The notes: generated by a model from the letters alone, not told the origin. DNA of 64,000 nucleotides from an uncultured Anaerolineales bacterium (GCA_964526295.1 CAZGKW010000007.1:5136-69135); one strand, 5' to 3'. Positions 39,355 to 57,888 are shown, counted from the first letter of the stretch. Translations and numbers: made by a program.

Positions 39355-40119
39355 TCAACGGCCCACGTGGCCTTCTTCGATGTCGAGGTCCTCGCGCCGC
39401 TCGATGCGTTCGACGGCCCCGTCGCGCATCCACAGGACCCGGTCGGAGTTGGCCAGCATCTTGTGGTCGTGGGTGGCGGCGATGATCGTCACGCCCTCCT
39501 CGACCGAGAGGCGTTTCAGCAGATCGATGATGTCGGCCCCGGTCTTCAGGTCGAGGTTCCCGGTCGGCTCGTCGGCCAGGATGATGACCGGGTCGTTGAC
39601 AAGGGCCCGGGCGATGGCAACCCGCTGCTGCTGGCCGCCGGAGAGCTCGTCCGGGCGGTGGTCGAGGCGGTCGCCCAGGCCGACCCGCTCGAGGACCCGG
39701 GCGGCGGCCACGGTGGCCGTCCGCGTGTCGGTCCCGGAGAGGACCCGCGGCAGCGCGACGTTCCGCGACGCCGTCAGCGACGGCAGCAGGTTGTAGGACT
39801 GGAAGACGTAGCCGATGTACTGGCACCGGACGTAGGCGAGCTGGCGGCTCGAGAGCTTCGTCAGGTCCATCGGGCCGATGGTCACCGAGCCTGAGCTGGG
39901 CACGTCGAGGGCCCCGATCATGTTGAACAGGGTCGTCTTGCCCGAGCCCGAGGGGCCCATGACCGAGAGGTACTCGCCGCAGAGGATGTCGGCGGAGACG
40001 TCCTTGAGGGCGTGGACGGTCTCGCCGCGGAGGCGATAGACCTTCGAGACGTTGCGGGCGCGGATGAGGACCTCGCCCAGGGCGATGCCGTCGCTTGCGG
40101 TTTCGAGCCCGGCCGTCAT
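39355..40119 (-). CDS. ABC transporter ATP-binding protein (MacB/FtsE/LolD-type)
   Basis: Walker A GPSGSGKTT, signature LSGGQQQRVAIARAL, Walker B ILADEPTGNLD, H-loop ATHD. Confidence 0.9.
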   Translation of the reverse strand: MTAGLETASDGIALGEVLIRARNVSKVYRLRGETVHALKDVSADILCGEYLSVMGPSGSGKTTLFNMIGALDVPSSGSVTIGPMDLTKLSSRQLAYVRCQYIGYVFQSYNLLPSLTASRNVALPRVLSGTDTRTATVAAARVLERVGLGDRLDHRPDELSGGQQQRVAIARALVNDPVIILADEPTGNLDLKTGADIIDLLKRLSVEEGVTIIAATHDHKMLANSDRVLWMRDGAVERIERREDLDIEEGHVGR

Positions 40120-40260: not shown

Positions 40261-42303
40261 TTAGAACGGCAGTTGGAACACGCTTTTCATCAGGAACGTC
40301 ACGCCGATGCTGAACGTTCCGACCAGCCCGACGCCGCACATGAACCCCGCCGCCACGACGGGGATATACTGCCGCCAATTGAGGCCCAGCCGCCGCTGGA
40401 AGTAATACCGGCCGAGCAGGGCCCCGATGAAGTTGGGGATGACCGCGTGGGGCATGGTCTGCCCCAGACCGCGGACGACGCCGTAGACGAGGAACGTCGG
40501 GGCCCCCAGCCGCGTCAGCAGCGTGAACATGAAGGTCCCCAGGACCAGCCCCGCCGCCAGGTAGTCCAGGTTGAACGCCCGCTCGAACAGGGAGTACCCG
40601 CCGAGGGTGGCGCTGTGCATGATGGCCTCGTTCTCGGCGTAGAGGTCCCACATTTTCTGGGCGAACGGGTACTGCGGCCCCGGCACCGGCGCCAGGCCCC
40701 AGATGAAGTTCGCGAACAGCAGGCTCGACAGGATGATGATCGGCGCGAGGATGAGGTCCGACTTCCAGATGCTCGTCACCTTCGTTCCCGTCAGCTCGGC
40801 CTGCCGGAACGACACGGTCTTGACGCCGTAGTTGTGGAGGGGGATGGGCAGGAACCAGACGGCCACCCCCTGGTAGCCCGACAGGATGAACGAGGCCTCC
40901 CGGACGAACGGAATGTTGACCACCTGGCCCGCGATGCCCTCCAGGCGGGCCGTGGCATAGCTGATGAACGGCGTGTAGAGGAAGCCGTAGAAGACCAGGA
41001 CCAAGAGCACGCCCGTGTGGACCCGGCCGTCGGTCAGATAGAGGAGGTAACACGATACGAGGATGTATAGGGCCGTCGAGATGATGTAGGTGATGATGAT
41101 GAAGCGGGTGCGGATGTCGCCCCGGCCGGGCGGCGGGGCGAAGCCCTCCTCCTGGAGCGTGTCCCGCTCCCGGTGCCACCGCCGCAGCTTCACGATGGCC
41201 TGGCAGATGGCCCCGATGCCCACCAGCGCGATCGCCAGCATCAGCCCGATCTGGAAGCTGAAGTAGAAGTCCACCTGGTTCTTGAACAGTGTCGAGATGG
41301 TGTTGTCGGCCCCGGCCTGCCACGCCTCCAGGACGTCCAGCCGATACAGGGCGGGGTTCGCGACCACCGTTACGAGCAGCCCGATGAAGCTGCCCACCAT
41401 CGCCCAGAACGGCAGGACCATGCCGGTGATGAGGTGTCCCAGGTCGAACGAGAGGCCCGTGGCGACGGCGGGCAGGTACTTGCCCGTCTGGGGGGTCCAG
41501 TCGACGAACGGGATGGGCAGCAGGACGATCGGCTTGTCGAGCAGGGCCCCCGTCACGGTCGGAATGCCGATATAGACGGCCCCGAAGACGATGCCGATAA
41601 TCGAGCCGATGGAGAAGACGCGGTATCGCCATCGGGTGGCGGGGCCGGAGGAGGTCTCGTCGGGCGCGCGGTTGGGGTTCTCCTCCTCCTGCTCCTCGCT
41701 GAGCGCCAGCACGCCCTGGGCCTGCAAGGGCGCCAGCGGGAACGGGAGCTTCTCCACGTCGCTTGCCAGGCGGAACAGGCCGTAGCCGAGGATCGTGTTG
41801 TTGAGGCGGCTCATGATCGTCGTGAAGACGATCAGGCCGATCGCCGGGAGCCACTCCCACGTGAAAATCGACCGGTGCGCCAGCACCTCCTGGCTCGGGA
41901 CGAACCAGAACGGGATGTGCTCGGCGATGCCGTGGGCCTCGGCCGCCGTCGACTGGGCGTAGAACTGCTTCCACAGGAGCGAGCCCTTGGGGATGACGGC
42001 GGCCGTGCCGGCCATCGCCGCCGCCGCCAGGTAGAACAGCGTGAAGATCTCGGCCCGTTTGAGGGTCTTGTTCGCCCGCCGGGCCACCTCGATGAACAGG
42101 ATCACCGTGACCCACTGGGCGGCCGGGCCGATCGCCTTGCCCGCCACCAGCGTCATGTAGAGCGCCCCGGGCACCATCACCAGGGCGACGAAGCAGACGC
42201 CGATGAACGACGACCATGTGAAGCCCTCCTCAAACGTGGAGGGGACCTCCAGGAGGCTTCGAAACTCCTGGACTTCCCGGTCGTCGGCGAGTTTTCTGGC
42301 CAT
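40261..42303 (-). CDS. 680-aa polytopic inner-membrane protein of unknown function
   Basis: About 14 predicted hydrophobic helices throughout, G/C-rich third positions, and no recognisable motif. Confidence 0.7.
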   Translation of the reverse strand: MARKLADDREVQEFRSLLEVPSTFEEGFTWSSFIGVCFVALVMVPGALYMTLVAGKAIGPAAQWVTVILFIEVARRANKTLKRAEIFTLFYLAAAAMAGTAAVIPKGSLLWKQFYAQSTAAEAHGIAEHIPFWFVPSQEVLAHRSIFTWEWLPAIGLIVFTTIMSRLNNTILGYGLFRLASDVEKLPFPLAPLQAQGVLALSEEQEEENPNRAPDETSSGPATRWRYRVFSIGSIIGIVFGAVYIGIPTVTGALLDKPIVLLPIPFVDWTPQTGKYLPAVATGLSFDLGHLITGMVLPFWAMVGSFIGLLVTVVANPALYRLDVLEAWQAGADNTISTLFKNQVDFYFSFQIGLMLAIALVGIGAICQAIVKLRRWHRERDTLQEEGFAPPPGRGDIRTRFIIITYIISTALYILVSCYLLYLTDGRVHTGVLLVLVFYGFLYTPFISYATARLEGIAGQVVNIPFVREASFILSGYQGVAVWFLPIPLHNYGVKTVSFRQAELTGTKVTSIWKSDLILAPIIILSSLLFANFIWGLAPVPGPQYPFAQKMWDLYAENEAIMHSATLGGYSLFERAFNLDYLAAGLVLGTFMFTLLTRLGAPTFLVYGVVRGLGQTMPHAVIPNFIGALLGRYYFQRRLGLNWRQYIPVVAAGFMCGVGLVGTFSIGVTFLMKSVFQLPF

Positions 42304-42364: not shown

Positions 42365-45300
42365 CTACTCCGCCGTCGCCTCCGCTTCCTCCTCGCCCAA
42401 GGCCGTCAGCGTCGCCATCCGGTACGACTCGACCGTCTCGGGCGTCAGCGTCCGCCACAGGAGGAACTGCCGCCTCAGGTCGTGCAGAAAGACCCGGTTG
42501 GCCCGTTTCCAGTCGGCGGCGGCGCCGCTGAGGCGGTCGGCCTCGACGGTCACCTCCTCGACGCCGGGGACCTCCGACGGGGCGCTCGAGAGCTCGAAGT
42601 GCTGCGTCACCCCCAGGTCGAACGGCGCCAGGGCCAGCTCGGCCTCCAGCGCCAGGCCGTCCGTCTCGCCGACCCGCCGGATGCGGACGTCGCGCGAGGC
42701 GAACACCCCGAGCCCGGCATCGTCGTGCTGGCGAAAATGCTCCGCCAGGTAGCCCACCACCCCGGTAATGTCGTAGGCCGAGACGGTGAAGGGGAACGTC
42801 ATCCGGAGGGTGTCGCCCTCGGGTGGGGGCATCTTCCAGGACCGCTTCAGGCCCGGGTTCGCACTCCGGGAGGCCCGGTAGGCGGGGAAGATCGCCGACG
42901 CCAGGACCGTCGCCATCACGATGCCGATGGCGAACAGGGCGTTGGTGGAGGAGAAGTTGATGTTCGTGGGCTGGATGAGGCCCCGCTCGGCCAGCATCAG
43001 CGTCCCCTGGGCCACGCCCTGGGCGAGGACTTGGCCGGCCATCCCGCCGACGACCGCGTAGACGGCCGCCTCGGCGAAAAACAGGAACCCCACGTCCAGC
43101 GGCGCCAGGCCCAGGGCGCTGAACGAGTAGATCTCCCGCTCCCGGTCGGCGATGCTCCCGAGCATCGTCCCGAAGATGATCAGCCCGCCCAGCAGGACCG
43201 GCACCGCCAGGGCCGCCGCCCCCGTCACCTCCGTCAGCTCCGAGAAGACCAGCCGTACGACGCCTTCCGTGCCGTTGGCCCAGACGGGCAGGGCGGTCTG
43301 CTCGGCCGCCGCCGCGCCGGCCTCCACCCGGTCGGTCTCCTCGGGTGGGTAGACCGTGACGACGTGCAGCCGTCCACCGAGCCGGCGGACGAGGTCGGCC
43401 GAGGCGATGGCCACCTGGTTCGGGCTCAACCGGACGAACTCGCGGGCCAGGACGTCCTCGGACGCCCCCTCTTTCTCCTCCGCCTTGACGGCCGAGGAGG
43501 GGTCGCGGAAGTCGACCGGCAGGGCGCTGCGGCCGTCCAGGTGGTTGAGCCGCTGGAGAAGGCGGTCGTCCAGGACGCCGGCGAACCGGCACCGCTCGCC
43601 CGCCACGAGGATCGGGTCCCCGGCATGGAGGTCCATCTGGTCGCGGAGGATCCGGGGCAGATAGACCCCCCCGCCGGCCAAGGCCGCGCACTTCTCCTCC
43701 AAGGTCTCGCCCTGGAGCAGCTCGGCCATCTGGGGCCACCGCCGCACCTCCTCCGGCGTCACGCCGATGACGCCGTCGACCCACAGGCTGGCCCCCGACG
43801 CCGGTCGGACCACGCCGAAAGCCGGGTCGCCTTCCAGCTTCGGGGCCAGCCACCACTGGCCGGTGACGAGCCCGCCGCCCGGGGCCCGGCGGGAGGCCGG
43901 GGCCGGGTCCTGGCCGGGCAGGTCCGCACCGGGGCGGGGGGCCGCCCCGCCCAGCGCCGCCTCGGGCGAGGCCGGGCCCTCCGAGCCGCCCAGCATCACC
44001 AGGGCGTCGCTGGAGAGGGCCTTGTAGTCGAGCTTCCGCAGGAAGAGGCCGGCGGCGTCGTCGCCGGGCGGCCGCTCGTAGACCTCCCGCACGCCCACCA
44101 GGTTCGCGAGCGAAGCGAAGCACATCACCGTGAAGGTCAGCATGACCACCGTGACGGCCGTCAGGACGGTCCGCAGCGGCCGACGCCGCATCGTCGAGAT
44201 GCCCATGTTGACGGCTGCGATCAGCGTCGAGAGCCGCGACTGCTGCACCCGGTGACGGGCGCTCGACTGGCCCTGCATTGCCCTCAGCTCGGTCTGGAAC
44301 TTGCGGGTCACGATGAAAATGACCACCGACGAGAGGAGGATGATGAGGAACGCCAGGAGAATGACGATCGGCGTGGCGGCGATCTTGAACCCCGGATGCG
44401 TCAGGAACAAGAGGACGAACGTCACCAGGAACAGGGCGGCGAACCCCACCAGCCGCGTGTAGATGCTCGTTGCGCAGACGATGAGACGTTCCATGACGAA
44501 GGCGAACGGGATGGCCAGCAGTAGCAGCAGGACAATCGCCCGGATCAGGTCGTTCATCACGTTCTTGAGCGGCAGGTAGACGTCGCGCGACAGGGCGGCG
44601 CTGCGGCCGAAGCGGGTCGTCCGCAGGGCCGTCGAATCCGCCCGGTGGGCCTCGGTCCTGATGCGCTGGGCCCGCCCGTGGAGCCGTTCCAGGTCGGCCG
44701 CGACGATGCCCCGCGTCCGGAGGATGCTCAGGCGGCCCTCGTTCAGCCGCCACAGGTCCTCGGCGCTCGTGGGGTCGGTCGGCGGCGGCGTCTGGAACGC
44801 CTCGAACGGGAACCCGTCGCCGGTTGCGCGTCGCGTCGGCTCGCCCAGGAACACCGGGCCCTTCGGATGGAAGACCTTGACCGTGCCGGGGAGACCCTCG
44901 AACATGTAGAAGAACGCGAAGTCGTCGCCGTGGCCGAGCAGGCGCCGCTGGATCCTGAACGGGGTGTCCGACCCGCCCGCCAGGACGTGGATTTCCTCGT
45001 CCGTGCCCCACTCGGCCATCAGGGGCCGGCCCACCACCTGGCCCTGGCATCGGAACAGGTTCAGGCGGACCCATTCGGCGCTCTTGCGGGTGTCCTCCTC
45101 GCGGTTCGTGATGGCGGTCGGCCGTCCCCGCGAGTCGAACATCGCCCCCACCACCTGGTACGTCGAGAAGAAGATCTTCTGGATGCCGACCAGTTCAAAG
45201 CGGCCGTCGGCGTTGGCGGCGGCGATGAACGTCGGGTCGAAGAAGGTGAACGAGTCGTCAAGGACGAGCGGGTTGACCCACTTGCGAGGTTCGCCGTTCT

Positions 45301-47512
45301 TCTTGGGCCAGACGGCGATCAGGGCGCCCGCGGCGGGCCGGTTCTCCTCCAGGCTTCCGGTCACCTGGAGACCAGCGAAGTTGCCCGTCGCGGTCTTCTT
45401 GGCATCGTCCCACTGGGAGAACCGCTTCAGCGAGAGGTCCTCGAACGTTCGCCGAAGCGACAGGGCCCGGAGGTCGGCCGCCCGCGCCAGGAGACGGGTC
45501 CCGGCCGCCGCGTGCCGGCGAAGCTCGCGCCACGCCAGCCGGTCCACTGTGTCGGCGGGGTGCCCGTCGCGGGGCCGGCGGTCGTGGCCCGTCATCAGCG
45601 ACACGTTGTAGATGCCGTGCACCCCGGCGACGCGCCCGTCGGAGACGAACCGGCCGGGGGCGTAGCGTCGGCTCTCGGTCGGCTCGCTGAGCGTTTTCGT
45701 GTCGAGGCTCGCGAGCCCGGTCGCGGCCGCATCGGTGGTCTCGGGGGCGCCGAACGACTCGGCCGCCTCGCGAAAGGCCGCCAGGACCTGGGCGTAGTGG
45801 CCGGCCGAGTCGGCGTTCGGGTTGGTGGCGATGTCGTGCAGGGCATCCCGCACGACCACGCCCCAGGTCGGCCCCTCGCCCGAGAGGTTGTAGCCGGTGT
45901 GCAGGACGATCGTCCGGTCCGCCAGCCGGGTCCGCAGCCGGCGGCCCTGCTCGTCGATTCGGACCCGCACGGCCAGCTCGTCGCGTCGGCGGGCGAAACC
46001 CGCGGCCGTCGCCTCGACCAGCTCCGCGTACAGCGCCGGATGGTCCCGGTGTACGAGGACGGTGCCCCCCAGGGCGGCCTCCGGGTCCGCCGCGCCGAAC
46101 AGCCAGCGGAAGGACCGGACCAGGTGGCTCTGTCGCCGCGTCCCGTGCAGGGCCCGGCGGACGGCGTCCCATCGACTCACCATCGCCCTGAGGTCATCGA
46201 CCTCTTGCATCTCAGGCGTCTCGCCCGCGGCCGCTTCCTCCTCGGCCCGGCGGCGAAGCTGCATGAGGCGGACGTTCAAGTCGGCCCGGAGATGGTCGGC
46301 CTGTCGGCTGAGCGCATCCTTGGCCGCGTCGACGTCCCCCGTCTCGACGTTCCACTGGCCCGGCGCCTGGCGGAGCAGCGCCAGGATGCCCTCGACGAAG
46401 GCCTTCTCCTGGCGATGCGCCTCGGCGAGCTTCTCGGCCTGTCCGCTCTCGAGGGTCAGGGCCGTGTAGAACGCCCGGGCCCCCGCGAAGGACCGGGCTT
46501 GGCCGTCCAGGAACGCCACCAGCACGTCCCGCCGGGGCCGGTTCTCCTTCAGCCAGGCCGTTGCTTCCAGCAGGGCCGCCACGTTGGCCGCTCCCCGGGC
46601 CCCCGGCGACAGGCGAGGCACTACGCCGAACGAATCGTAGTTGGCCGACAGGACGACCAGCTCCGGTCCGGGGCTGTCGAAAATGGGGTTGGTGCCCGGC
46701 AGGAAGGCGAACACGTTTCGCCCGGACGTCCGTTTCCACTCGACGTGGCTGACGACGGTCACCTCGGGGTGGTCCCGCCGAAGGTCGACGCCGGCCCGGC
46801 GGGCCTCCTCGGCCGGGGCGTAGAGGCGGACCAGGTTGGCCGGCACGTAGGCGTGCTTGCGGGCCAGGGGGGTGGCTCGATGATCGGCACCGGCGGCGGG
46901 GCCGGGCTGCGCCGCCGGACCGCCCAGGAAGATCACCGCCTTGGCCCCCATCCGGAACGCCCGCTCCCACTGGTCGTCGCAGTCGTACTCCAGTCCGACG
47001 ATGGCCCCTGCGCAGGGGCGGTCTCCGTACTCGGCCAGCGTGCCGCGGCCGGCGTAGAGGTACGGCCCCCTCAGGCCCTCGTCCGGCGTGACGGGCGGCA
47101 TGAGGATGTTCGGGCGGACGGGGAGCAGCTCGACCTTCGCCGCGCCGCCCGGGGCATCCGTGCCCAGGAGCAACTCGCACCGCGCGGGCTGGGTCTGCCA
47201 CAGCGGCACGTCGAGGATGAAGACGTCCTGGGCGGCCGTCAGCGGGGCCTCGGCCGGGGTCGTCTCGCCCGCCGGGGGGGGCACCGCTAGGCCCATAGCT
47301 GCGAGACGCCCCAGGACATAGTCGGCGGCCCGCCGTCCTTCGGACGTGCCCGCCAGACGGTGCGGGTCCCGCGTCAGGGCCTCGAGGTCGGCCCGGAAGG
47401 CCTCCTCCCCGGGCTCGCGGGCGGGGGCCCCGGCCGCGCAGTCGGGGCCCGCGGCGGCCGCGGCCAGCGCCGCCCACCCCGCCAGCGACAACGCGATGAC
47501 CCGAGCACCCAT
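42365..47512 (-). CDS. 1716-aa secreted/membrane fusion protein: PA-domain-containing M28-like (apparently inactive) peptidase domain + large extracytoplasmic region + 4-TM bundle + MacB-type FtsX permease
   Basis: The real start is ATG at 47512 (MGARVIALSLAGWAALAAAAAGPDCAAG, a signal peptide), and it overlaps the stop of the upstream ABC ATPase as ATGA. The upstream 159 codons of track ORF 42365..47989 are antisense of that ATPase. An M28-like block reads VVLSANYDSFG...GARGAANVAALLE...VAFLDGQARSFAGARAFY with the Zn ligands replaced. The C-terminus ...LLGGLIIFGTMLGSIADREREIYSF...IFPAYRASR is an FtsX domain. Confidence 0.75.
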   Translation of the reverse strand: MGARVIALSLAGWAALAAAAAGPDCAAGAPAREPGEEAFRADLEALTRDPHRLAGTSEGRRAADYVLGRLAAMGLAVPPPAGETTPAEAPLTAAQDVFILDVPLWQTQPARCELLLGTDAPGGAAKVELLPVRPNILMPPVTPDEGLRGPYLYAGRGTLAEYGDRPCAGAIVGLEYDCDDQWERAFRMGAKAVIFLGGPAAQPGPAAGADHRATPLARKHAYVPANLVRLYAPAEEARRAGVDLRRDHPEVTVVSHVEWKRTSGRNVFAFLPGTNPIFDSPGPELVVLSANYDSFGVVPRLSPGARGAANVAALLEATAWLKENRPRRDVLVAFLDGQARSFAGARAFYTALTLESGQAEKLAEAHRQEKAFVEGILALLRQAPGQWNVETGDVDAAKDALSRQADHLRADLNVRLMQLRRRAEEEAAAGETPEMQEVDDLRAMVSRWDAVRRALHGTRRQSHLVRSFRWLFGAADPEAALGGTVLVHRDHPALYAELVEATAAGFARRRDELAVRVRIDEQGRRLRTRLADRTIVLHTGYNLSGEGPTWGVVVRDALHDIATNPNADSAGHYAQVLAAFREAAESFGAPETTDAAATGLASLDTKTLSEPTESRRYAPGRFVSDGRVAGVHGIYNVSLMTGHDRRPRDGHPADTVDRLAWRELRRHAAAGTRLLARAADLRALSLRRTFEDLSLKRFSQWDDAKKTATGNFAGLQVTGSLEENRPAAGALIAVWPKKNGEPRKWVNPLVLDDSFTFFDPTFIAAANADGRFELVGIQKIFFSTYQVVGAMFDSRGRPTAITNREEDTRKSAEWVRLNLFRCQGQVVGRPLMAEWGTDEEIHVLAGGSDTPFRIQRRLLGHGDDFAFFYMFEGLPGTVKVFHPKGPVFLGEPTRRATGDGFPFEAFQTPPPTDPTSAEDLWRLNEGRLSILRTRGIVAADLERLHGRAQRIRTEAHRADSTALRTTRFGRSAALSRDVYLPLKNVMNDLIRAIVLLLLLAIPFAFVMERLIVCATSIYTRLVGFAALFLVTFVLLFLTHPGFKIAATPIVILLAFLIILLSSVVIFIVTRKFQTELRAMQGQSSARHRVQQSRLSTLIAAVNMGISTMRRRPLRTVLTAVTVVMLTFTVMCFASLANLVGVREVYERPPGDDAAGLFLRKLDYKALSSDALVMLGGSEGPASPEAALGGAAPRPGADLPGQDPAPASRRAPGGGLVTGQWWLAPKLEGDPAFGVVRPASGASLWVDGVIGVTPEEVRRWPQMAELLQGETLEEKCAALAGGGVYLPRILRDQMDLHAGDPILVAGERCRFAGVLDDRLLQRLNHLDGRSALPVDFRDPSSAVKAEEKEGASEDVLAREFVRLSPNQVAIASADLVRRLGGRLHVVTVYPPEETDRVEAGAAAAEQTALPVWANGTEGVVRLVFSELTEVTGAAALAVPVLLGGLIIFGTMLGSIADREREIYSFSALGLAPLDVGFLFFAEAAVYAVVGGMAGQVLAQGVAQGTLMLAERGLIQPTNINFSSTNALFAIGIVMATVLASAIFPAYRASRSANPGLKRSWKMPPPEGDTLRMTFPFTVSAYDITGVVGYLAEHFRQHDDAGLGVFASRDVRIRRVGETDGLALEAELALAPFDLGVTQHFELSSAPSEVPGVEEVTVEADRLSGAAADWKRANRVFLHDLRRQFLLWRTLTPETVESYRMATLTALGEEEAEATAE

Positions 47513-48375
47513 CACGCCTGCCCCCCGATCCGGCCCACCCGGACCTCGACGTCCTCGCGTCGGTCGACCCGCTCGATCTGGCCGTCGCGGATCCACATCA
47601 TCCGGTCGCAGACGTCGAGCAGGCGATGGTCGTGCGTCGCACAGACGACCGTCACGCCCTGGCTCTCGTTGAGGCGCTGGAGGACCTGGAGGATCTCGGC
47701 CCCGGTTGCCAGGTCCAGGTTGGCGGTCGGCTCGTCCGCCAGGAGGACCTTGGGCTGGTTGCACATGGCCCGGGCGATGGCGACCCGCTGCTGCTGGCCT
47801 CCCGACATCTCCTTCGGCCGATGGGTCCACCGGTCCGCCAGACCCACCAGGTCCAGCAGCTCCATCCCCCGCCGGCGGGCGGCCTCGGGCGCCACCCCGG
47901 CGAAGGCCATTGGCACCGTCACGTTCTCCAGGGCCGTCATGTACCGGATCAGGTTGTAGCCCTGAAAGATGTAGCCGATCTTGCGGCACCGGAGGAAGGC
48001 CAGCTCCTCGGCGCTGAGTTGGGCGACGTCGGTTTCGTCAATGAGGACCCGCCCCTCGGTGGGCGAGTCGAGCGCCCCGATCATGTTGAAGAACGTCGTC
48101 TTGCCCGAGCCCGAGGGGCCGAGGATGGCGATAAACTCGCCCCGGTGGATGACCGCGTTGACCCCGTTCAGGGCGTAGGTGGTCTTCTCGCCCATCTGGT
48201 AGCACTTGACGAGCCGGAGGGTCCGGATGATGACCGGCTCGTCGGTGGATTGCGGTGTCTCGGTCATCTCAGCTTGCGTGAATCCTTGCGCGTCCACAGG
48301 CCCCGGCGAGCTTCCGCTCGCCGCTCGAAAACTTTCGACTCGGGTTCCCGCCTTCGCCAAGGCGACGGCGGGCAA
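47512..48375 (-). CDS. ABC transporter ATP-binding protein (MacB/FtsE/LolD-type)
   Basis: Walker A GPSGSGKTT, signature MSGGQQQRVAIARAM, Walker B LLADEPTANLD, H-loop ATHD. Confidence 0.9.
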   Translation of the reverse strand: MPAVALAKAGTRVESFRAASGSSPGPVDAQGFTQAEMTETPQSTDEPVIIRTLRLVKCYQMGEKTTYALNGVNAVIHRGEFIAILGPSGSGKTTFFNMIGALDSPTEGRVLIDETDVAQLSAEELAFLRCRKIGYIFQGYNLIRYMTALENVTVPMAFAGVAPEAARRRGMELLDLVGLADRWTHRPKEMSGGQQQRVAIARAMCNQPKVLLADEPTANLDLATGAEILQVLQRLNESQGVTVVCATHDHRLLDVCDRMMWIRDGQIERVDRREDVEVRVGRIGGQA

Positions 48376-48420: not shown

Positions 48421-49887
48421 TCATTCGATTCGCATCGCTTCCATCGGCGCGAGGCGGGCCGCCGCCCACGCCGGGCCCACCGCTGCCAGCACCGCCAGCA
48501 CCAGGCCCGAGGCGAGGCACGCCGCCGCCCCCACGAACGTCTCCCGCACCGGCAGCACCATCAGGCTGCCGAAGGCGACCGCGCCTCGCAGCATCGCCAG
48601 GGCGTAGCCCAGGATGATCCCCGCGATGGCCCCCACCAGGCCTTGCGTCCCCGACTCGAATAGAAACTGGAGCCGGATGAACCCGTCCATCGCCCCCAGG
48701 CACTTCATCGTGGCGATCTCGGCGAACCGCTCCGCCACCGACATGAACATGGCGTTCGCCACGCCCACCGTGCACACCAGGAACGACAGGCCGATCAGCC
48801 ACTTGACCCAACCGGGGACGGTCAGCAGACCGCCGCCCTCGACCGGGGGCGGCCCTTCGCCCACGGCCGCCGAGAGCCGCGACTGCTCCCGCAGCGACTC
48901 GGCCAGCGCCAGCAGCCGTTGCGGCTCCACACGCGGCCCGGCCGCGTACCGGTTGATCAGCGTCCCCAGAAACGCCGCCTTCTTCCGCGAGTCCAGCCAC
49001 GCGAGCACCCGGCCGTGGGTCACCTCGGTGGCCTTGAGGTCCAGCTCCTTGGCCAGGGCCCGGGCCACGTCGGGCAGCTTGACGGCTTCGGTCAGGCGGA
49101 TCTGCTCCTCGGCCTGCCGCGCCAGGGCCGCCAGCTTCGGCAGGGCCTCCTGGGGCAACTCGAACCCCGCGGCCGCCAGCGTCTCGGCGAAGTCCGGCGG
49201 CGGGTAGGCGAACAGCTCCCGCGGCGACCGGCCCGGATACGCCGCTTCGATACGCCGGATGGCCGCCTCCTGGCCCCGGCGGATCCGCTCGGCCATCGCC
49301 AGGGCCTCGGGGCGGTCTCCCGTCAGCACCGCCCGGAACCGCTCGACGCTACCGAGCGGCGGCTCCAGCCGGAGCTCCTTCAGGTGGGCGAGGAACGCCT
49401 CGAACCGCTGCGCTTCGCTCAGGCGGCCCGCCGCCTCGTGCGGCTCAAGGTCCGCCACCAGGACCGTCCGCGTCGCCACCGGCAGGCCCTCCAGGTAACC
49501 GTAGAGCCGGGCCAGCGACCGGGCGGCCTCGCGGGCCGAGGCGAACTCCGCCTCGGTCGCGCCGCTCCAGGTCCGGTACGCACCCACCCGCGGCCCGTCG
49601 GCCCCCGCCAGGCGCGAGAGGATCGCCGCCGCGTCGTCCGGCACCGTCAGGCGGGTCGTCCACTCGCCCAGGAGCCGGGCATCGCGGAGCTGCCGGTACG
49701 CCGCCAGACGCGTCCGGTTCTCGATCACGCTGTACCCGAGGACGTGGGCGAGGAACGCCACCGCCAGGGCCAGGATCGAGACCGTCACCATCGACCGGAA
49801 CATCCGGTACGACATCCCGGTCAGCGTCAGACCGAAGCACCGGGCCGGCCCGATGCGAACCTGGTTCTTGACCACCAGCGGCTTCAC
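48421..49887 (-). CDS. FtsX-like ABC permease (MacB-type, with ~350-aa extracytoplasmic helical domain)
   Basis: GTG at 49887 (VKPLVVKNQVRIGPARCFGLTLTGMSYRMFRSMVTVSILALAVAF is TM1) overlaps the PqqD-like gene stop. The C-terminal FtsX TM2-4 is ...LSFLVCTVGVANAMFMSVAERFAEIATMKCLGA...AARLAPMEAMR. The upstream low-complexity part of track ORF 48421..50163 is rejected. Confidence 0.75.
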   Translation of the reverse strand: MKPLVVKNQVRIGPARCFGLTLTGMSYRMFRSMVTVSILALAVAFLAHVLGYSVIENRTRLAAYRQLRDARLLGEWTTRLTVPDDAAAILSRLAGADGPRVGAYRTWSGATEAEFASAREAARSLARLYGYLEGLPVATRTVLVADLEPHEAAGRLSEAQRFEAFLAHLKELRLEPPLGSVERFRAVLTGDRPEALAMAERIRRGQEAAIRRIEAAYPGRSPRELFAYPPPDFAETLAAAGFELPQEALPKLAALARQAEEQIRLTEAVKLPDVARALAKELDLKATEVTHGRVLAWLDSRKKAAFLGTLINRYAAGPRVEPQRLLALAESLREQSRLSAAVGEGPPPVEGGGLLTVPGWVKWLIGLSFLVCTVGVANAMFMSVAERFAEIATMKCLGAMDGFIRLQFLFESGTQGLVGAIAGIILGYALAMLRGAVAFGSLMVLPVRETFVGAAACLASGLVLAVLAAVGPAWAAARLAPMEAMRIE

Positions 49888-50324
49888 GTCTCGGCCCCCT
49901 CGGCCGCCGGACCGGCCCCGTCGGTCGGCGTGCCGATCATCACGATCAGCCCCCGCCGGGTCAGGTCGCGGAGGAACTGCATGACGCTGATCCGGGCCTC
50001 CTGGAACGTCAGGTGGTGGGCCCGTGAAAAGCGCTCGATGATCTCTTCGGCGGTCCGCCGCCCGTCGCAGGCCTCCCACACCTCCCGGCCCAGCCGGTCG
50101 AGGCCCACGGCCCGCTCGCGGCTGAACGGCATCACCCACGACAGCGGCGGCCGCATGTACCACCGGCGGACGAGCGGCACGCGAAGGACGATCCCGCCTC
50201 CTCCCGGTCCCCGGCCCGACGGTTGCGGCTCGGCGCGGACCGACTCGTTCGGCACGGGGACGGCGTCGAGCAGGTCGGTCGGCCCCAGCGTCGTCTCGGT
50301 CTCCGGTTGCGTCTTCTTCTTCAT
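49884..50324 (-). CDS. PqqD-family / RiPP-recognition-element-like small protein
   Basis: ATG at 50324 overlaps the upstream stop as ATGA. The C-terminal ~85 aa read ...LDRLGREVWEACDGRRTAEEIIERFSRAHHLTFQEARISVMQFLRDLTRRGLI, matching the PqqD fold signature. It is hidden inside track ORF 49884..51245. Confidence 0.65.
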   Translation of the reverse strand: MKKKTQPETETTLGPTDLLDAVPVPNESVRAEPQPSGRGPGGGGIVLRVPLVRRWYMRPPLSWVMPFSRERAVGLDRLGREVWEACDGRRTAEEIIERFSRAHHLTFQEARISVMQFLRDLTRRGLIVMIGTPTDGAGPAAEGAET

Positions 50325-51205
50325 GTCAGCTCGCGCTCCGCCCCGTCCGGCGCCCCGTCGCAGCAGCGGACGGCGAAGGCCTCCGGCCGCACCAGGTCCT
50401 TCCGCGGGCCCCGCGTCGTCACCAGGAACACTGCGTGGGCCGACGGGCACAGCCACGCCCGGTCGAGCCGCTCCGGCGTCCGCCGCACGAACCGGGCGAC
50501 GGCGTTCGGGGCCTCGTTGCTGCGGCCGTCGCGGGCCTCGTGGGTCCCGTACGTCGTCTCGGACACCTGGCACCGGGCGGGGCCCGTCTGGTTCCTCAGG
50601 AACGCCGCCAGGTCCCCGCCGAACCAGGCGTCGACCGCCCCCAGCCGCCGCACGACCGCCTCCCGCCGCCGGTCCTTGCGGAACGTCATCGACGCATCGG
50701 CCGGCCGGGCCGACACCTCGGCCAGCGGCCACTCGGGCGGGACGCGGATGTCGAGGCCGAAGGCCCGCCACCGACGCGGCGGATCGGCCTCGTCGTCCAC
50801 CTCGAACCCCTCCAGGAGCCGCCGCTCCAGGCCCGTATCGACCGCCTCGGGCCACGAGACCACCATCTCGACCCACCGCTTCAAGGCCGCCAGGTACCGC
50901 CCGGCCCGGGTGATGGTGCCGGCCTCGCCCCGGCGGCGGAAGCCCCGCCAGCCGGCCGTCCGCTCCAGGCGAGTCAGCTTGCAGTCGGGGTCCTCGGCCA
51001 GCTCGTCGGCCCGGTAGTCCGAGAGCGTCCGCTTGACGTCCGGCTCGGCCTCGGCCCGGATCCACGAGACCTGGAGCCGTTGCCGACGTCGGTCCGCCAG
51101 GGCCAGGCTGCCCCGCTCGGCGCCCAGGGCGTGGCGGACGATCTCCCACGCCTCCGGCACCGCCAGGTGCATGCCCAGCCACACGATGTCGCGGGTCGTC
51201 TGCAT
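50321..51205 (-). CDS. hypothetical 294-aa protein (no TM, family not recognised)
   Basis: Track ORF 50321..51205(-). G/C-rich third positions. Its stop is coupled to the PqqD-like ATG. Confidence 0.6.
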   Translation of the reverse strand: MQTTRDIVWLGMHLAVPEAWEIVRHALGAERGSLALADRRRQRLQVSWIRAEAEPDVKRTLSDYRADELAEDPDCKLTRLERTAGWRGFRRRGEAGTITRAGRYLAALKRWVEMVVSWPEAVDTGLERRLLEGFEVDDEADPPRRWRAFGLDIRVPPEWPLAEVSARPADASMTFRKDRRREAVVRRLGAVDAWFGGDLAAFLRNQTGPARCQVSETTYGTHEARDGRSNEAPNAVARFVRRTPERLDRAWLCPSAHAVFLVTTRGPRKDLVRPEAFAVRCCDGAPDGAERELT

Positions 51206-51291: not shown

Positions 51292-54132
51292 TCAGCCCGG
51301 CAACAGGCTGTAGGTCACCGGGGCCTTCCCCGTCAGGGCGAAATAGACGGCCCCGACGATGGCCCATCCGATGGCCGCCAGCAGCTCGCCGGCGATCACG
51401 CCGACCATAAGCGGCTTGATCAACTGGTACCCCTTGGCGCCGCCGAGCTTGACGACGGCGGTCTTGATGGCCCAGCCGAGGAAGAACGAGGCGGCGAGCT
51501 CGAACCCGGGCTTCGTGCCCCAGACGAGAAACATTACCGGATGGATAAACCACCAACTGATACGCAGCCGCGCGATCGAGACCCCCACCACCAGCGCCAG
51601 GCCGAGGCCCACCCAGCCCATGACTTCCGGGTCGAACCGGGCCTCCGCCAGGGCCCCCAGCCCCGACGTGGCCGTCGCCCGGGCCAGGTCGCCTCGGGCC
51701 CGGAGCTCCACGATGTGCTTCTCGATGCTGTTGAAGACCTCCCGCGGCAGCGACACCGTCGCCCACTTGTCCCGGTGGTTGACCCCGAGGTTGTACTGGA
51801 ACCACAACGTTACCAGCAGGGCCGCGACGAAGGCGGCCACCAGCATCACAAGCAGCCAGGGGGCCAGGCGGCGCGGCCGGGCGCCGGCGCCGCTGTGGCC
51901 CATCCGCAGGCCGTTCGCCAGATACGGCATGATGGCTTCCCGCGGGTCGCCCACCAGGATCACGCTGGCCAGGGCCAGCAGGACGTACGCCTGGGGACTG
52001 ATGGCCGAATGCCCCAGCACCGCCACCAGGACGGTCGCCGGCAGCCAGTAAGCCTGGAGGAAGAACGCCCCGGTCTCGACGTTGATCCGCGTGATGATCA
52101 ACAGCGTCAGCATCACCAGCGCGATTGCCAGGATGCTGAGCGGCCAGTCGAGCCCCGCCCGACACAGAAGCAGCACCGCCAGGACCAGGCACACGATCAG
52201 GCCGCGCGCCGCCCACGTGGCATAGGGGGGCGTGTCGCGCCGCCGACTGAGGCCGAAGGCGCTGCCCAGCACGTTCAGGTAATACCGCCGTCCGATGTAA
52301 AGCAGGACGCCCGCCATCCCAAGGTAGGCCCCGAAGACCATCAGGTTCACGTTCTTGGCGTCGAAGTACGGGCTGACCATCGCCGTGCCGCGGGCCACCA
52401 GGATCGTCCCGAACGCCACGTACGCGACGCCCGAGATGCCCAGGCTGAACGAGACCCCCTTGTTCAGGAAGAAGGCGAACGCCACGACGCTGAGGTAGAT
52501 CGTCGGGTTCCAAACGCCCTGCCAGTCGTAGACCTTCTTGGCCGTGGGGAAGAGCTTCTTCAGGGGCGTAAAGTCGACCTGCGTCGGGACCTTGATGAAG
52601 AACGTTTCGTTGTCCCACTTGTTCAGGCCGTTCACGAGGTGCAGCAGGACCAGCGCCAAGAGGCCGTACCAGAAGAGCCGCGACAGAAGGACCGCCGGGG
52701 TCCGGCTTTCCGCGGCGGGGCGCGTCACCTCCTCGACGAACCGGGCGATGGGGTAGGCCAGCAGCTCCCGCTGCGACCACTGGGGGTGGACGATCAGCGT
52801 CAGGCAAAGCGCCGCCGTGCCCACCAGCAGCGCCAGGCCACCCCACAGCTTCAGCGTCGGCCACCATGTCCTCCAGGGCAGGTCCGCCAGGCCGAGGCCG
52901 AATCGCTCCCCGGTGCCGCCCCGCCACCCCTGCTGGAGCGTCTCGACGGCGAAAGGGTCGATCGTCCCGCCGGCCAGCAGGGGGCCCTCGTCCGGGTCGT
53001 ACGGCGCGAGCAGCTCCGGCCAGGCCGCCTCCAACGCGATGCGGTTGATCTCGGCCTCCAGGCGGCCCACCTGGTTCGCCGTGCCGATCCGGTGGTCGAT
53101 CGAGTCGATGCGTTCCTGGAGGAGGCGGATGGGGTTGTCGTAGGCGGCAAGCCGCCCCGTGACGTCGCGAATGCGGGCCTCCAGCGGGGCCATGCGGGCA
53201 TCCAGGGCCTCGATCTCCCGGCGGAGGGCCTCGATCCGGCTCGTCAGGTCGGAGGGGGCCTCGGCCGCCGGGGCCGGTTCGCCGCCGGGGCCCTCGGCCT
53301 TGCGGAGGCGGGCCTGGAGGTCGGCAAGCTGCCGGGCCAAGGCCTCGCGCTGGAGGCGCAGGGGCTCGCGCTCGGCGATGAGGGCCTCCCGCTCGGGCTC
53401 CAGGCGGACCCGGAGGCTCGTCCGCCGGGCTTCCAACTCCCGGAGCCGATCGCCGAGATCCTCGCGCTGCACGGCCAGCTCGGCCCGCTCCTCGAGGAGC
53501 GCCTCGGCGACCTCCGGCAGTCGGTCCCCCAGGGCGGTATAGAACGCCCGGTCCTCGATGACGTTCTCGTTGATGGCCCGCAGGAGGGCGGATTCCTCGG
53601 CGTCCGAGAGGCGGGCGTCGTCGGGCCGCTCGCCCGCGATCCGTCGGGCCCCCTCGGGCAGAAGGGTCCAGACCAGCCGGTCGGTTTCGTCCTCCGCCGC
53701 CTCGGCGGCGGCCAGCCGCTCGACCAGCGCTTCCCAGTCGCGGACGTGGCCCCGGGCGAGGTGAGGAGAGCCGCCCGGCACGTACGACATGATCTGGGCG
53801 TCCTGCCACCCGGTCCGGTTCCGGATGAGCTGGCTGGGCATGGCGAGGTTCGTGGTGAACGTCCGGAAGAACCCCGAGCCGGGCCATCCGCAGGCCGCCA
53901 GGCCGATCGCCGTGATCACGACCAGCTCGGACGACTTCAGCCGCCACCTCGTTCCGACGGCGCCGAGCGTCGGGTTCACCGCCAGCAGCAGGACCACCAG
54001 GACGCCGAAGACCGCGATGGGAAGGAAGTTCCCGATCAGTTGGGTCTGGTTGATGACGGCGTCGTTGAAGTAGGTGACGGCCGAGACGAGGAGGCCGAGC
54101 AGGAGGCCCAGGATGACCGCGCGGAGCGTCAT
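51292..54132 (-). CDS. 946-aa polytopic membrane protein with ~350-aa central coiled-coil
   Basis: ATG at 54132 after GGGAGG gives MTLRAVILGLLLGLLVSAV.... It has ~5 N-terminal TMs, then a long heptad-rich region (...LRELEARRTSLRVRLEPEREALIAEREPLRLQREALARQLADLQARLRK...), then ~12 further TMs. The track ORF is extended to 54333. Confidence 0.7.
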   Translation of the reverse strand: MTLRAVILGLLLGLLVSAVTYFNDAVINQTQLIGNFLPIAVFGVLVVLLLAVNPTLGAVGTRWRLKSSELVVITAIGLAACGWPGSGFFRTFTTNLAMPSQLIRNRTGWQDAQIMSYVPGGSPHLARGHVRDWEALVERLAAAEAAEDETDRLVWTLLPEGARRIAGERPDDARLSDAEESALLRAINENVIEDRAFYTALGDRLPEVAEALLEERAELAVQREDLGDRLRELEARRTSLRVRLEPEREALIAEREPLRLQREALARQLADLQARLRKAEGPGGEPAPAAEAPSDLTSRIEALRREIEALDARMAPLEARIRDVTGRLAAYDNPIRLLQERIDSIDHRIGTANQVGRLEAEINRIALEAAWPELLAPYDPDEGPLLAGGTIDPFAVETLQQGWRGGTGERFGLGLADLPWRTWWPTLKLWGGLALLVGTAALCLTLIVHPQWSQRELLAYPIARFVEEVTRPAAESRTPAVLLSRLFWYGLLALVLLHLVNGLNKWDNETFFIKVPTQVDFTPLKKLFPTAKKVYDWQGVWNPTIYLSVVAFAFFLNKGVSFSLGISGVAYVAFGTILVARGTAMVSPYFDAKNVNLMVFGAYLGMAGVLLYIGRRYYLNVLGSAFGLSRRRDTPPYATWAARGLIVCLVLAVLLLCRAGLDWPLSILAIALVMLTLLIITRINVETGAFFLQAYWLPATVLVAVLGHSAISPQAYVLLALASVILVGDPREAIMPYLANGLRMGHSGAGARPRRLAPWLLVMLVAAFVAALLVTLWFQYNLGVNHRDKWATVSLPREVFNSIEKHIVELRARGDLARATATSGLGALAEARFDPEVMGWVGLGLALVVGVSIARLRISWWFIHPVMFLVWGTKPGFELAASFFLGWAIKTAVVKLGGAKGYQLIKPLMVGVIAGELLAAIGWAIVGAVYFALTGKAPVTYSLLPG

Positions 54133-55948: not shown

Positions 55949-56257
55949 TCATCGTTTCCGAAGTGACGCCAGCCCAAAGCCGACGACAGTTGGGATTGAA
56001 CCCACGACAATAATTACGAGTATGCTATCGATGGTATTTGCTAGCGCGAAGAATAGGAGCGCCGAGAGAATCAGCCCCCCTAGGACGGCAATGGCACCCC
56101 ATCCCGTTGTTGCTTCGGTCTTCTCTCCTGAGATCGGATGCCCACAGTGGGGGCATTGGCAAGCAGATGAACTAACTTGACTGGAGCAAACAGGGCATCT
56201 TATCAGTCCCATTGCAGCCACCTCTTCAGGATCCAAAGATTGTGGCCCGCAACTCAA
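55949..56257 (-). CDS. zinc-ribbon membrane protein (island gene)
   Basis: CPVC...CPHC zinc ribbon, then two TM helices (AIAVLGGLILSALLFFALA / ILVIIVVGSIPTVVGFGLA). The start may be the internal MGLIRCPVC. Confidence 0.55.
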   Translation of the reverse strand: MSCGPQSLDPEEVAAMGLIRCPVCSSQVSSSACQCPHCGHPISGEKTEATTGWGAIAVLGGLILSALLFFALANTIDSILVIIVVGSIPTVVGFGLASLRKR

Positions 56258-56286
56258 GCAGACGGTCGAGACTTAGAGTTGCACGC

Positions 56287-57090
56287 TCAGAGGAACGGGA
56301 CCAACCCGAGGAGGAACGGGATCAGCCCGAGAATGAAGACGCCGACTATGAGCCAAAGTGAACCAACGAAGCCAAGAATTAGTCCGGCCGTGGCTAATCC
56401 CTTCGGTTCGCTGAACATCCCGCAAAAGCTGAGCAGAAGGCCAATGGGTGCAAGGACGCCGCAGGAAAAGAATCCCAGGAGCGAAAAGACGAAACCCGCG
56501 ACCCCCAAAACGTTGCTTCGTGGAGCCTCTATGACAACCACTTGAGACTGGCTTTGCCTTGAAGTTCGGCTGACTTGGCGATAAGGCGCACCCCTGTTGC
56601 TTGGTTGTATATTCGCATTCGTGTGTACATGTGCCGAGGATGGTACAGGAAGCTTCTGTTCGTAAGGTTGAAGGACTTCGCCCTCTATCGCCTGTGTACG
56701 TCCTGCGGTTTCTGTCTTTGCCTTAGCGTCTAGATAAGCCTCAGACTCGCGACGTTTTTGCTCCTGTTCTCTCTTATGTTCTGCTGCGGCTTTGACCTTG
56801 CGCTGTTTTGCTGCTTTTCGTTTCTGTCGATATTCCTTCATTCGCTGTTGCATCTCGGGCCACAGAAGCTGAAACCCAGCGGCTTGGACGATGTTCTGAC
56901 ACTTTGAGCACTGGATATCGTCGCGTCGGTGCTCGTAAGAAACCGTGATCCCGTCGCCACAAACAGGGCACTTAAACCGGACTGGGTGTTTTGCAACCAT
57001 GTCGAATCGCTCTACCTTGACAATCGGAACGGAGCAAATAAGAACTTCATCACTGAGAACGCACGCTTCCCCCCTTCTTCTTCGATTCAA
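56287..57090 (-). CDS. zinc-ribbon membrane protein with Lys/Arg/Glu-rich linker (island gene)
   Basis: CPVCGDG...CSKCQN zinc ribbon, a highly charged KRK-rich linker, and a C-terminal multi-TM segment. The TTG start at 57090 abuts the PEP-CTERM gene stop; an alternative ATG is at 57000. Confidence 0.55.
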   Translation of the reverse strand: MNRRRRGEACVLSDEVLICSVPIVKVERFDMVAKHPVRFKCPVCGDGITVSYEHRRDDIQCSKCQNIVQAAGFQLLWPEMQQRMKEYRQKRKAAKQRKVKAAAEHKREQEQKRRESEAYLDAKAKTETAGRTQAIEGEVLQPYEQKLPVPSSAHVHTNANIQPSNRGAPYRQVSRTSRQSQSQVVVIEAPRSNVLGVAGFVFSLLGFFSCGVLAPIGLLLSFCGMFSEPKGLATAGLILGFVGSLWLIVGVFILGLIPFLLGLVPFL

Positions 57091-57774
57091 TCAGGACTTC
57101 AAACGCTTCCTGCTGTACGATCCCAGAAACCCGAGCCCAATAAGGCCGGAAGCCAACGTTACCGGTTCGGGAATCACGTAACCAGGTTCAAGGTCCACTT
57201 CAATCCTGAGCGTAGCGTAGTCTATGGCCGCATCGTCAGTCAAACGCATGTCGAGTACCCCGTCTTGGAGAAGCGGAAGCCTATCATCCCCCAAGACGTT
57301 CGCGAGGTCGAGCGTCCTCATGCTAGTTCCCGACTCAGGGACGGGGAGCCACCCTAGGTCGCTGAAGGTGTAGTATGGATAGTCCTCAATGGGGTTGTCC
57401 TTGTGAAACACCACCCAGTCGGTGGTCACCAGGCCATCCGTCGCTCGCAAAGCGAAAGTCAGCGTAGCTGCCGTCACTTGCTCTCCTGTCGCAAGCGAAA
57501 ACTCCAGCGTGAACGGCACCAACTGGTTGGCGTGGAGTTCGTCAAAGTCGGACGTTCGAGGAACACGAGGGACTGCAAGCCAAGCTTGCATGCCCGGACT
57601 CAGATATACGTCATCTTCGCTTCCTGCGCCTTCGTAGGTGAACCCGTCAGCGTCGCCCAGCAGGTACTCACGGGTTTCAGGATATGTTATGGCTAGGGCT
57701 GGGACCTGGGCGCAGGCGAAGAAGCCAATCCCACCGGCAACCAAAAAGGCAGCACACTTCCCAAGACATGTCAT
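57091..57774 (-). CDS. PEP-CTERM sorting-signal secreted protein
   Basis: Signal peptide. The C-terminus VIPEPVTLASGLIGLGFLGSYSRKRLKS has the PEP motif, a hydrophobic helix and a basic tail, which is the exosortase substrate signature. Confidence 0.75.
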   Translation of the reverse strand: MTCLGKCAAFLVAGGIGFFACAQVPALAITYPETREYLLGDADGFTYEGAGSEDDVYLSPGMQAWLAVPRVPRTSDFDELHANQLVPFTLEFSLATGEQVTAATLTFALRATDGLVTTDWVVFHKDNPIEDYPYYTFSDLGWLPVPESGTSMRTLDLANVLGDDRLPLLQDGVLDMRLTDDAAIDYATLRIEVDLEPGYVIPEPVTLASGLIGLGFLGSYSRKRLKS

Positions 57775-57888
57775 TCCGCTTCCCCCACTTTTACATTGTC
57801 ATAAACATTCGGCGAACTGGGCAATGTACCTCAAGAACCCGGTTGCGTCAAATAGAAAATGGCGCGCTACTTAGTTCGAGTTGTGCAC

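Follow-up and report, generated by a model that had tools for sequence, protein, structure and literature searches.

A predicted zinc-free M28-like head on a giant FtsX-type permease encoded in a conserved eight-gene operon

The Giant Gene and Its Protein

A stretch of DNA from an uncultured Anaerolineales bacterium (GCA_964526295.1, CAZGKW010000007.1:5136-69135) encodes a membrane protein of 1715 amino acids, referred to here as the giant protein, in which an N-terminal ectodomain related to M28 aminopeptidases shares one polypeptide with an FtsX-type permease of the ATP-binding cassette (ABC) class. The window, meaning the whole 64,000-nucleotide stretch with all coordinates counted from its first letter, has a G+C content of about 70%. 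A first-pass annotation of this DNA had quoted four peptide blocks as signs of a PA-containing, M28-like module with replaced zinc ligands, and all four fall on the minus strand within one open reading frame only, at 42365-47989. In the numbering of the giant protein they are YLYAGRG...AKAVIFLGG (residues 151-198, 46919-47062), VVLSANYDSFG (286-296, 46625-46657), PGARGAANVAALLE (303-316, 46565-46606), and VLVAFLDGQARSFAGARAFY (330-349, 46466-46525). The first 159 codons of the open reading frame overlap the gene of an upstream ABC ATPase in another frame; translation really begins at 47512 (ATG) or 47515 (GTG). Starting from the ATG, which has one base in common with the ATPase stop codon TGA, the giant gene occupies 42365..47512 on the minus strand and encodes 1715 residues plus the stop codon, identical to database protein P0001; the alternative GTG would give 1716 residues. 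The order of parts along the chain is a signal peptide, an ectodomain of about 960 residues, three transmembrane helices, a cytoplasmic linker, a four-helix FtsX module, and a cytoplasmic tail. The hydrophobic signal sequence at the N-terminus (residues 1-23, 47444..47512) was located by a hydropathy scan.

An M28 Fold with a PA Insert

Following the signal sequence, the first segment of the M28-like domain (residues 24-105, 47198..47443, minus strand like all parts of this gene) carries a PHRLAGT.E motif and aligns to residues 9-100 of the Aneurinibacillus aminopeptidase 2ek8. A PA-like, or apical, domain is then inserted into the M28 fold at approximately residues 106-260 (46733..47197), as judged from alignment to the PA domains of 2ek8 and 6hc6 and from Foldseek; its core motifs are GAIV.L.YD and AF..GAKAVIF. 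The first half of the M28 core (residues 261-352, 46457..46732), delimited by Pfam PF04389, residue-level alignments, and column counts over 72 homologues, holds three degenerate metal motifs, SANYDS (with Asn291 and Asp293), GARGAAN (Arg306), and FLDGQAR (Gln338-Ala339). The core is then interrupted by a bundle of long helices of 35-40 residues each (residues 353-530, 45923..46456; H333-507 in the AlphaFold2 model), after which profile alignments and homologue column counts place the second half of the core (residues 531-690, 45443..45922), with the strand IVLHTGYNL, in which His538 is invariant, followed by DGHPADT. The remainder of the ectodomain consists of a beta-rich region without any Pfam match (residues 691-905, 44798..45442; strands at model positions 671-858) and a helical stalk leading into the membrane (residues 906-985, 44558..44797; H889-961 of the model).

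The assignment of the M28 fold draws on three kinds of comparison. Pfam Peptidase_M28 (PF04389) matches residues 267-351 with 26.8 bits against a cut-off of 21.3 (E=5e-6), a match that spans only positions 1-78 of the 193-position profile, and the same family is precomputed on about 30 of the 74 homologues found. A single-sequence search of the PDB with residues 1-900 returned one chance match only, so a family profile was needed; it was built from 67 members. This profile matches 2ek8 with E=1e-14 and the Bacillus subtilis aminopeptidase BSAP/YwaD (6hc6) with E=1.3e-12, each in one stretch of about 290 columns that begins in the N-terminal segment, crosses the PA domain, and ends at the EE strand. 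Keratinase KP1, the transferrin receptor (TfR), and nicastrin are matched more weakly, the TfR at 1e-3 and over its N-terminal part only. The AlphaFold2 model of the ectodomain (residues 24-985) has a mean predicted local distance difference test score (pLDDT) of 91.2 and a predicted template-modelling score of 0.92, and a Foldseek search of the PDB with this model recovers the M28 fold, listing 2ek8 (5e-15), GCPII (9e-14), BSAP (3e-13), the TfR (1e-12), and 3iib (2e-12), all at probability 1.0 over alignments of 340-400 columns. When the PA domain and the helical insert are removed from the family profile, the best PDB matches of the remaining M28 core are nicastrin (9e-4) and nicalin (8e-3), with alignments that end after the EE strand. 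Taken from profile and model alike, the N-terminal ectodomain has the fold of a PA-containing M28 aminopeptidase, and the M28-like similarity that had been proposed by eye is borne out.

The PA-like insert, also part of the first-pass annotation, holds up by a different route from the one foreseen. The Pfam PA model PF02225 has no match in the giant protein at E<=10, and among 10 relatives it appears below threshold in 2 (19.0 and 12.3 bits; cut-off 23.9) and reaches threshold in none. The assignment therefore rests on the profile-to-structure alignment together with the fold, by both of which the PA domain sits at the canonical insertion site of the M28 domain.

A Remodelled Active Site

The columns of the metal ligands were counted over 72 full-length homologues, with positions in the giant protein taken from the HMMER alignments to 2ek8 and 6hc6. 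At the first ligand His, in the HxD motif, the giant protein has Asn291, and His is found in only 10 of the 72; the Asp of the same motif, Asp293, is invariant. The bridging Asp has become Arg306 (Arg in 67/72), and the ligand Glu has become Ala339, a column with Ala in 56 homologues and Glu in none. Where the catalytic general-base Glu, the first of the EE pair, would be expected, the giant protein has Gln338 (Gln in 43, Glu in 12, and His in 9 of the 72). For the last ligand His, the HTPED of 6hc6 (HTPxD) aligns to G-(H/T/Q)-P-x-D, which puts Gly650 at the ligand position (Gly in 69/72); a shift by one residue would bring His651 there, a column that is His in 36/72 only. Four positions of the M28 ligand set (His, Asp, Glu, Asp, His) are thus taken by Asn291, Arg306, Ala339, and Gly650, in line with the first-pass reading of Asn, Arg, Gly, and Gln-Ala replacements, and the canonical set is kept by none of the 72 homologues, which makes the loss ancestral to the family. 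With four ligand positions replaced family-wide, these alignments identify the protein as a non-peptidase homologue of M28 and not as an M28 peptidase, so that the earlier call of a non-catalytic module stands for the query and its homologues alike. Many non-peptidase homologues of M28 are listed in MEROPS and few have been characterized, the TfR being a known example (PMC4000134). Relatives of the giant protein bear the automated labels "FtsX-like permease", "hypothetical", or "M28 family peptidase"; the last of these, which is the name in the public records of homologues P0042 and P0066, probably misstates their activity, because the metal ligands are lost family-wide.

Loss of the ligands has not been accompanied by drift of the site. 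The most conserved 9-mer of the 962-residue ectodomain is GARGAANVA, which contains the Arg in place of the bridging Asp and has a mean identity of 0.89 against an ectodomain mean of 0.42. The next most conserved windows are the PA core AF..GAKAV (0.80) and then the N-terminal PHRLAGT.E (0.77), and the least conserved part is the helical insert, with a mean column identity of 0.30. His538 and Asp654, like Asp293, are invariant or nearly so in the 72 homologues. We read this pattern in the alignment as that of a site kept for a new purpose rather than one in decay.

Two other explanations bear directly on these columns. One is that the head is a cryptic enzyme, with catalysis through Asp293, His538, Asp654, Asn310, and His651, or through one differently coordinated metal. 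The old active-site region is indeed the conservation maximum of the ectodomain, three of the named residues are invariant or nearly so, and M28-fold proteins have evolved other chemistries, as in glutaminyl cyclase (PMC4000134). Yet glutaminyl cyclase, unlike the present family with its Arg for the bridging Asp and its Ala and Gly for the ligand Glu and His, retains the metal ligands; the position of the catalytic Glu is variable, with Gln in 43/72; Asp293 and Asp654 are conserved structural residues in ordinary M28 enzymes too; and His651 is His in only half of the homologues (36/72). We regard a cryptic enzyme as very improbable. The second explanation takes the M28/PA fold as a passive scaffold, a spacer or oligomerization platform for the other parts of the ectodomain, without a ligand site of its own. 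That TfR-like ectodomains dimerize and that this ectodomain has additional beta-rich and helical parts would suit such a role, but a spacer is not expected to have its conservation peak in the catalytic motif (0.89) and the PA core (0.80) while the insert drifts (0.30), and the scaffold explanation accordingly seems quite unlikely.

The Permease Half, the Extra Helices, and the Tail

The stalk enters the membrane at a segment of three extra transmembrane helices (residues 989-1067) and an Arg/Lys-rich cytoplasmic linker (residues 1068-1114), together residues 986-1114 (44171..44557), which is highly conserved and matches positions 77-220 of the PADLOC model PDLC01991. The FtsX/LolCE/MacB-type permease module follows at residues 1115-1550 (42863..44170), identified by Pfam, PDB profile matches, and Foldseek. 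Pfam FtsX (PF02687) matches residues 1436-1550 with 31.4 bits against a cut-off of 25.5. Hydropathy and the AlphaFold2 model agree on the order of the module, which is TM1, a periplasmic domain of about 295 residues, and TM2-4. With the C-terminal AlphaFold2 model (pLDDT 86.8), Foldseek finds LolE/LolC at 7e-9 and MacB at 6e-7, as well as the pneumococcal MacB-like protein 5xu1, HrtB, YtrF, YbbP, FtsX, and the isolated MacB periplasmic domain 5c59; the PDB profile matches of the permease half are 5xu1, YtrF, MacB, and LolF. Few stretches of the giant protein are as conserved as the coupling-helix motif DREREIYSFSALGLAP. Sequence profile and predicted fold thus make the C-terminal half a type VII ABC permease of the LolC/E and MacB kind. 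The fusion of an M28-like module to an FtsX permease is real in the sense that both lie in the same polypeptide, with the permease supported by PF02687; the description of the module as fused upstream of the permease needs refinement, as the two are not directly adjacent but separated by roughly 300 further ectodomain residues and the three extra transmembrane helices.

The cytoplasmic C-terminal domain (residues 1551-1715, 42368..42862), of alpha+beta type by hydropathy, the AlphaFold2 model, and Foldseek, has no sequence match in Pfam, NCBIfam, or the PDB. Its Foldseek matches are weak and START/Bet v1/PYL-like only (E about 0.05-0.1); on the predicted fold, it could be a sensor of a small molecule or lipid. 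This tail is also among the best-conserved parts of the giant protein, with a mean identity of about 0.63.

The seven-helix core made up of the extra helices, the linker, and the FtsX module (residues 986-1550; 42863-44557, minus strand) matches the PADLOC model 'CARF_LolE_TM' (4.3e-43 for the whole protein) and, at nearly identical positions, the 1791-position model 'CARF_Beta-galactosidase_LolE_TM', while the ectodomain and the tail match neither of these CARF_m8 models. These matches suggest that the core is a common chassis that may be fitted with exchangeable ectodomains and with cytoplasmic sensor or end domains. A role in a defence system was considered on account of the PADLOC matches and was rejected: the generic seven-helix core alone matches, the protein lacks a CARF domain, and the operon is a stable part of the chromosome in different phyla.

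Homologues and the Conserved Operon

The homologue search returned 74 relatives, mostly of 1600-1750 residues, and an exhaustive search of 50%-identity representatives gave 149 proteins at E<=1e-30 and 849 at E<=1e-10. Using two sequence patterns, one of them the coupling-helix motif given above, relatives were retrieved from 202 GTDB species representatives, almost all of them metagenome-assembled genomes. The carriers include Phycisphaerae and other Planctomycetota (Brocadiia among them), Verrucomicrobiota, Kiritimatiellia, Lentisphaeria/Victivallales, Chitinivibrionales/Fibrobacterota, Polyangiaceae/Myxococcota, and Sumerlaeia.

In the window the giant gene is the sixth of eight genes on the minus strand, in the transcription order DUF6785 protein, 294-residue protein, PqqD-like protein, FtsX permease, ATPase 1, giant protein, OPT-like protein, and ATPase 2. 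The eight proteins were compared with 80 loci by tblastn, and the denominators below are the loci with sufficient flank. Gene order and strand are alike almost everywhere that the flank suffices, across five or more phyla. Immediately upstream of the giant gene, ATPase 1 (251 residues, 47512..48267), of the LolD/MacB/FtsE type, is found in 65/70 loci; before it stand the second FtsX-type permease (488 residues, 48421..49887; 59/64), the PqqD-like small protein (146 residues, 49884..50324; 56/62), and the 294-residue protein (50321..51205; 52/61), the last of which has no relative in Pfam, NCBIfam, or the PDB, a PDB profile search included. The gene of the DUF6785/DUF6784 polytopic membrane protein (946 residues, 51292..54132) lies upstream on the same strand in 39 of 55 loci and was found elsewhere nearby in others. 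Downstream, the OPT-like polytopic membrane protein (680 residues, 40261..42303) is retained in 65/67 loci and ATPase 2 (254 residues, 39355..40119), of the same type as ATPase 1, in 50/52. The OPT-like protein leads the operon in conservation: across phyla its mean column identity is 63%, and more than 150 of its residues are invariant. Its Pfam OPT match is weak, and a PDB profile search gave no match. In both ATPases the Walker A, signature, Walker B-Glu, and H-loop motifs are canonical; the two score best against the LolD, MacB, DevA, and FtsE models, and they form separate orthologous groups.

A few observations on the neighbours stand apart from the question of the giant protein. The DUF6785/DUF6784 protein has a coiled-coil insert of about 160 residues between its N-terminal transmembrane helices and the DUF6785 core, with weak SMC-like and LmuB-like matches, and it shares with the OPT-like protein a short D/E-x-L-P/A-F/Y-P motif. 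The idea that these two proteins are paralogues was rejected at an hhalign probability of 1%. In the second FtsX permease the TM1-TM2 loop, about 330 residues long, appears from its sequence to be rich in charged, helix-forming residues and to be unlike the Porter/Sabre domain of MacB. An ATGA stop/start overlap (50321-50324) joins the genes of the 294-residue and PqqD-like proteins and a TGATG overlap (47512-47514) joins ATPase 1 to the giant gene, both on the minus strand, which suggests translational coupling in this genome; the overlap between the ATPase and giant genes is present at locus L003 and absent at L004 and L005.

A Proposed Machine

PqqD is a family of peptide-binding chaperones and OPT a family of peptide transporters, and type VII ABC systems such as MacB, LolCDE, and FtsEX are the model for ATP-driven work outside the cytoplasmic membrane. 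We propose, with a probability of about 0.62, that the head of the giant protein is a zinc-free pseudo-peptidase, a binding or lever module without catalytic activity in an ABC machine that uses ATP for mechanotransduction. The giant protein would be the oversized permease subunit of a type VII machine, bearing an outward-facing head of PA and M28 domains that is predicted to be unable to bind the two catalytic zinc ions and in which the former active-site cleft has been remodelled, with Arg for the bridging Asp inside the almost invariant GARGAAN. The old cleft between the two domains would bind or dock a peptide or protein ligand without cleaving it; we favour a docking site over a decayed relic because no other surface of the ectodomain is so strongly conserved. 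Carried on the helical stalk, the three extra transmembrane helices, and the LolC/E-like four-helix module, the head would be set in motion along with other periplasmic parts as ATP binding and hydrolysis by the two LolD-type ATPases is passed through the membrane (mechanotransmission). The second FtsX-type permease is the probable partner, in a heteromeric complex as with LolC and LolE, and the PqqD-like, 294-residue, DUF6785, and OPT-like proteins would belong to the same apparatus. Peptide-like cargo is the most economical guess, made because the PqqD-like and OPT-like proteins are present.

Several points weigh against this proposal. The fourth zinc ligand, equivalent to Asp179, has the candidate columns Asn542, Ser544, and Gly545 and no confident alignment, and the persistence of His538, Asp293, and Asp654 near the old site makes a non-canonical metal or catalytic site conceivable. 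Only synteny points to an assembly of the giant protein with the second permease and the two ATPases, and the ligand, the partner contact, and the ATP dependence of the head are predicted. Synteny itself has an exception in P0039 (locus L002, 8970-14926, on a 3.9-Mb contig), where the gene of the 294-residue protein is the sole operon neighbour and the permease, ATPase, OPT-like, and PqqD-like genes are absent within 10 kb.

A broader extension of the proposal is that the eight-gene cluster encodes an undescribed envelope machine, the representative of a new peptide-handling or envelope-biogenesis class and not a variant of Lol, Mac, or FtsEX. A heteromeric type VII motor of two permeases and two ATPases would there be combined with a zinc-free cleft that captures peptide or lipopeptide-like cargo, while a cytoplasmic PqqD-type peptide chaperone and the polytopic OPT-like and DUF6785 proteins would cooperate with it. 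We put this forward tentatively and think it possible but doubtful. Such a machine would be common to Planctomycetota, Verrucomicrobiota (Kiritimatiellia and Lentisphaeria among them), Fibrobacterota, Myxococcota, and Sumerlaeia.

Comparison with Known Systems

The closest relatives of the ectodomain by both sequence profile and fold are 2ek8 (Aneurinibacillus AM-1), 6hc6, and 3iib, which share with the giant protein the common order of an N-terminal segment, a PA insert, and the HxD, GAxDD, and EE strands. These are secreted, active di-zinc enzymes of about 400-450 residues, whereas the giant protein, a membrane protein of 1715 residues, has Asn, Arg, Ala, and Gly at the ligands and a helical bundle of about 180 residues after the EE strand. 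TfR1 and GCPII, of subfamily M28B, also have a membrane-tethered ectodomain with an apical (PA) domain within a protease-like domain, the TfR is the classic non-catalytic member, and Foldseek places both at E-values of 1e-12 to 1e-13. The first-pass annotation had gone further and called the architecture TfR-like and M28B. Membership in M28B is not established: the TfR and GCPII, as type II proteins, are anchored at the N-terminus and have their helical dimerization domain at the C-terminus, after the protease-like domain, whereas the helices of the giant protein are an internal insertion that follows the EE strand and precedes the next strand of the core, and its anchor is C-terminal, in an ABC permease. 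The sequence profile is closer to bacterial aminopeptidases (1e-14) than to the TfR (1e-3), with Foldseek E-values that are similar for both.

Nicastrin, of gamma-secretase, and nicalin offer a second comparison: both are M28-like ectodomains without catalytic activity that serve a multi-pass membrane complex as its lid or receptor outside the membrane, and their PGA(x)xA and EE motifs have degenerated in a similar way. They differ in being eukaryotic and single-pass, with no fusion to a transporter and no drive by ATP, and their similarity to the giant protein may stem in part from a shared loss of the ligand columns.

In FtsEX-EnvC a type VII ABC module works with a catalytically defective metallopeptidase fold and long helices, in ATP-driven signalling to the periplasm (PMC10214136). 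The giant protein resembles this system, and likewise FtsEX with PcsB, CwlO, or RipC, in all three of these features, and one can imagine that its dead head is an EnvC-like regulator of a separate periplasmic hydrolase, which it would activate or sequester by means of the helical insert as an ATP-driven lever. In support of that alternative, the inactive metallopeptidase fold, the long helices, the FtsX-type permease, and the FtsE/LolD-type ATPases are all present, and the FtsEX-EnvC mechanism is itself established (PMC10214136). However, none of the genes of the conserved operon encodes an amidase or other hydrolase (80 loci compared), the permease is nearer to LolC/E and MacB than to FtsX, and the PqqD-like and OPT-like partners favour peptide-like cargo over control of the cell wall. 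EnvC is moreover a separate protein with an M23/LytM fold that activates amidases, whereas the dead fold here is M28 and is fused to the permease, and FtsX has neither the extra transmembrane helices nor the cytoplasmic tail. The FtsX models of NCBIfam are not among the matches of the giant protein, and the neighbouring permease scores 28.9 bits against a cut-off of 255. An EnvC-like regulator is therefore unlikely in our view, and the FtsEX-EnvC parallel that the first-pass annotation had drawn is reasonable as a functional analogy only, without any family relationship.

In its permease half the giant protein is most like LolCDE, MacB, YbbAP, and YtrEF, with which it shares the four-helix fold, the periplasmic domain between TM1 and TM2, the coupling helix, and LolD-type ATPases; the pairing of two different permease genes in the operon recalls LolC and LolE. 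None of these systems, in contrast, has an N-terminal ectodomain of about 960 residues, three extra transmembrane helices, a C-terminal cytoplasmic domain, or two distinct ATPase genes. Every NCBIfam equivalog score falls far short of its cut-off, with lolCE at 35 bits against 362 and LolD at 221-223 bits against 308. The giant protein belongs to the FtsX/MacB/LolCE superfamily and, judged by these scores, is the orthologue of no named system. The PADLOC CARF_m8 models are strongly alike in the seven-helix core, with the difference that the giant protein lacks a CARF domain.

A search of one literature library found no paper on an M28/PA-FtsX fusion, on DUF6785, or on the eight-gene operon. 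Mechanotransducers of the type VII ABC class have been described, and so have pseudo-M28 domains; what is new is the fusion of the two, the extra parts, and the conserved operon that spans several phyla. To our knowledge, the known examples of type VII systems work through small periplasmic domains or separate partner proteins. The family of the giant protein, with a full-size pseudo-enzyme head fused to the permease in a tightly conserved operon of mostly uncultured carriers, offers a concrete example, open to experiment, of an inactive peptidase fold put to use as a mechanotransducer's working end.

Other Features of the Window

Scans of the window for Rfam families and tRNA genes found nothing. 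Beyond the operon, an island of low G+C content (0.55 against about 0.70) at 56000-58000 and 60285-61319 holds two open reading frames without a family match and adjoins an open reading frame for a Mutator-family/DDE transposase; it is possibly a recent insertion. Near it lie a BamB-like PQQ beta-propeller protein (58406-60067) and a phosphate-selective porin O/P (61586-63235).

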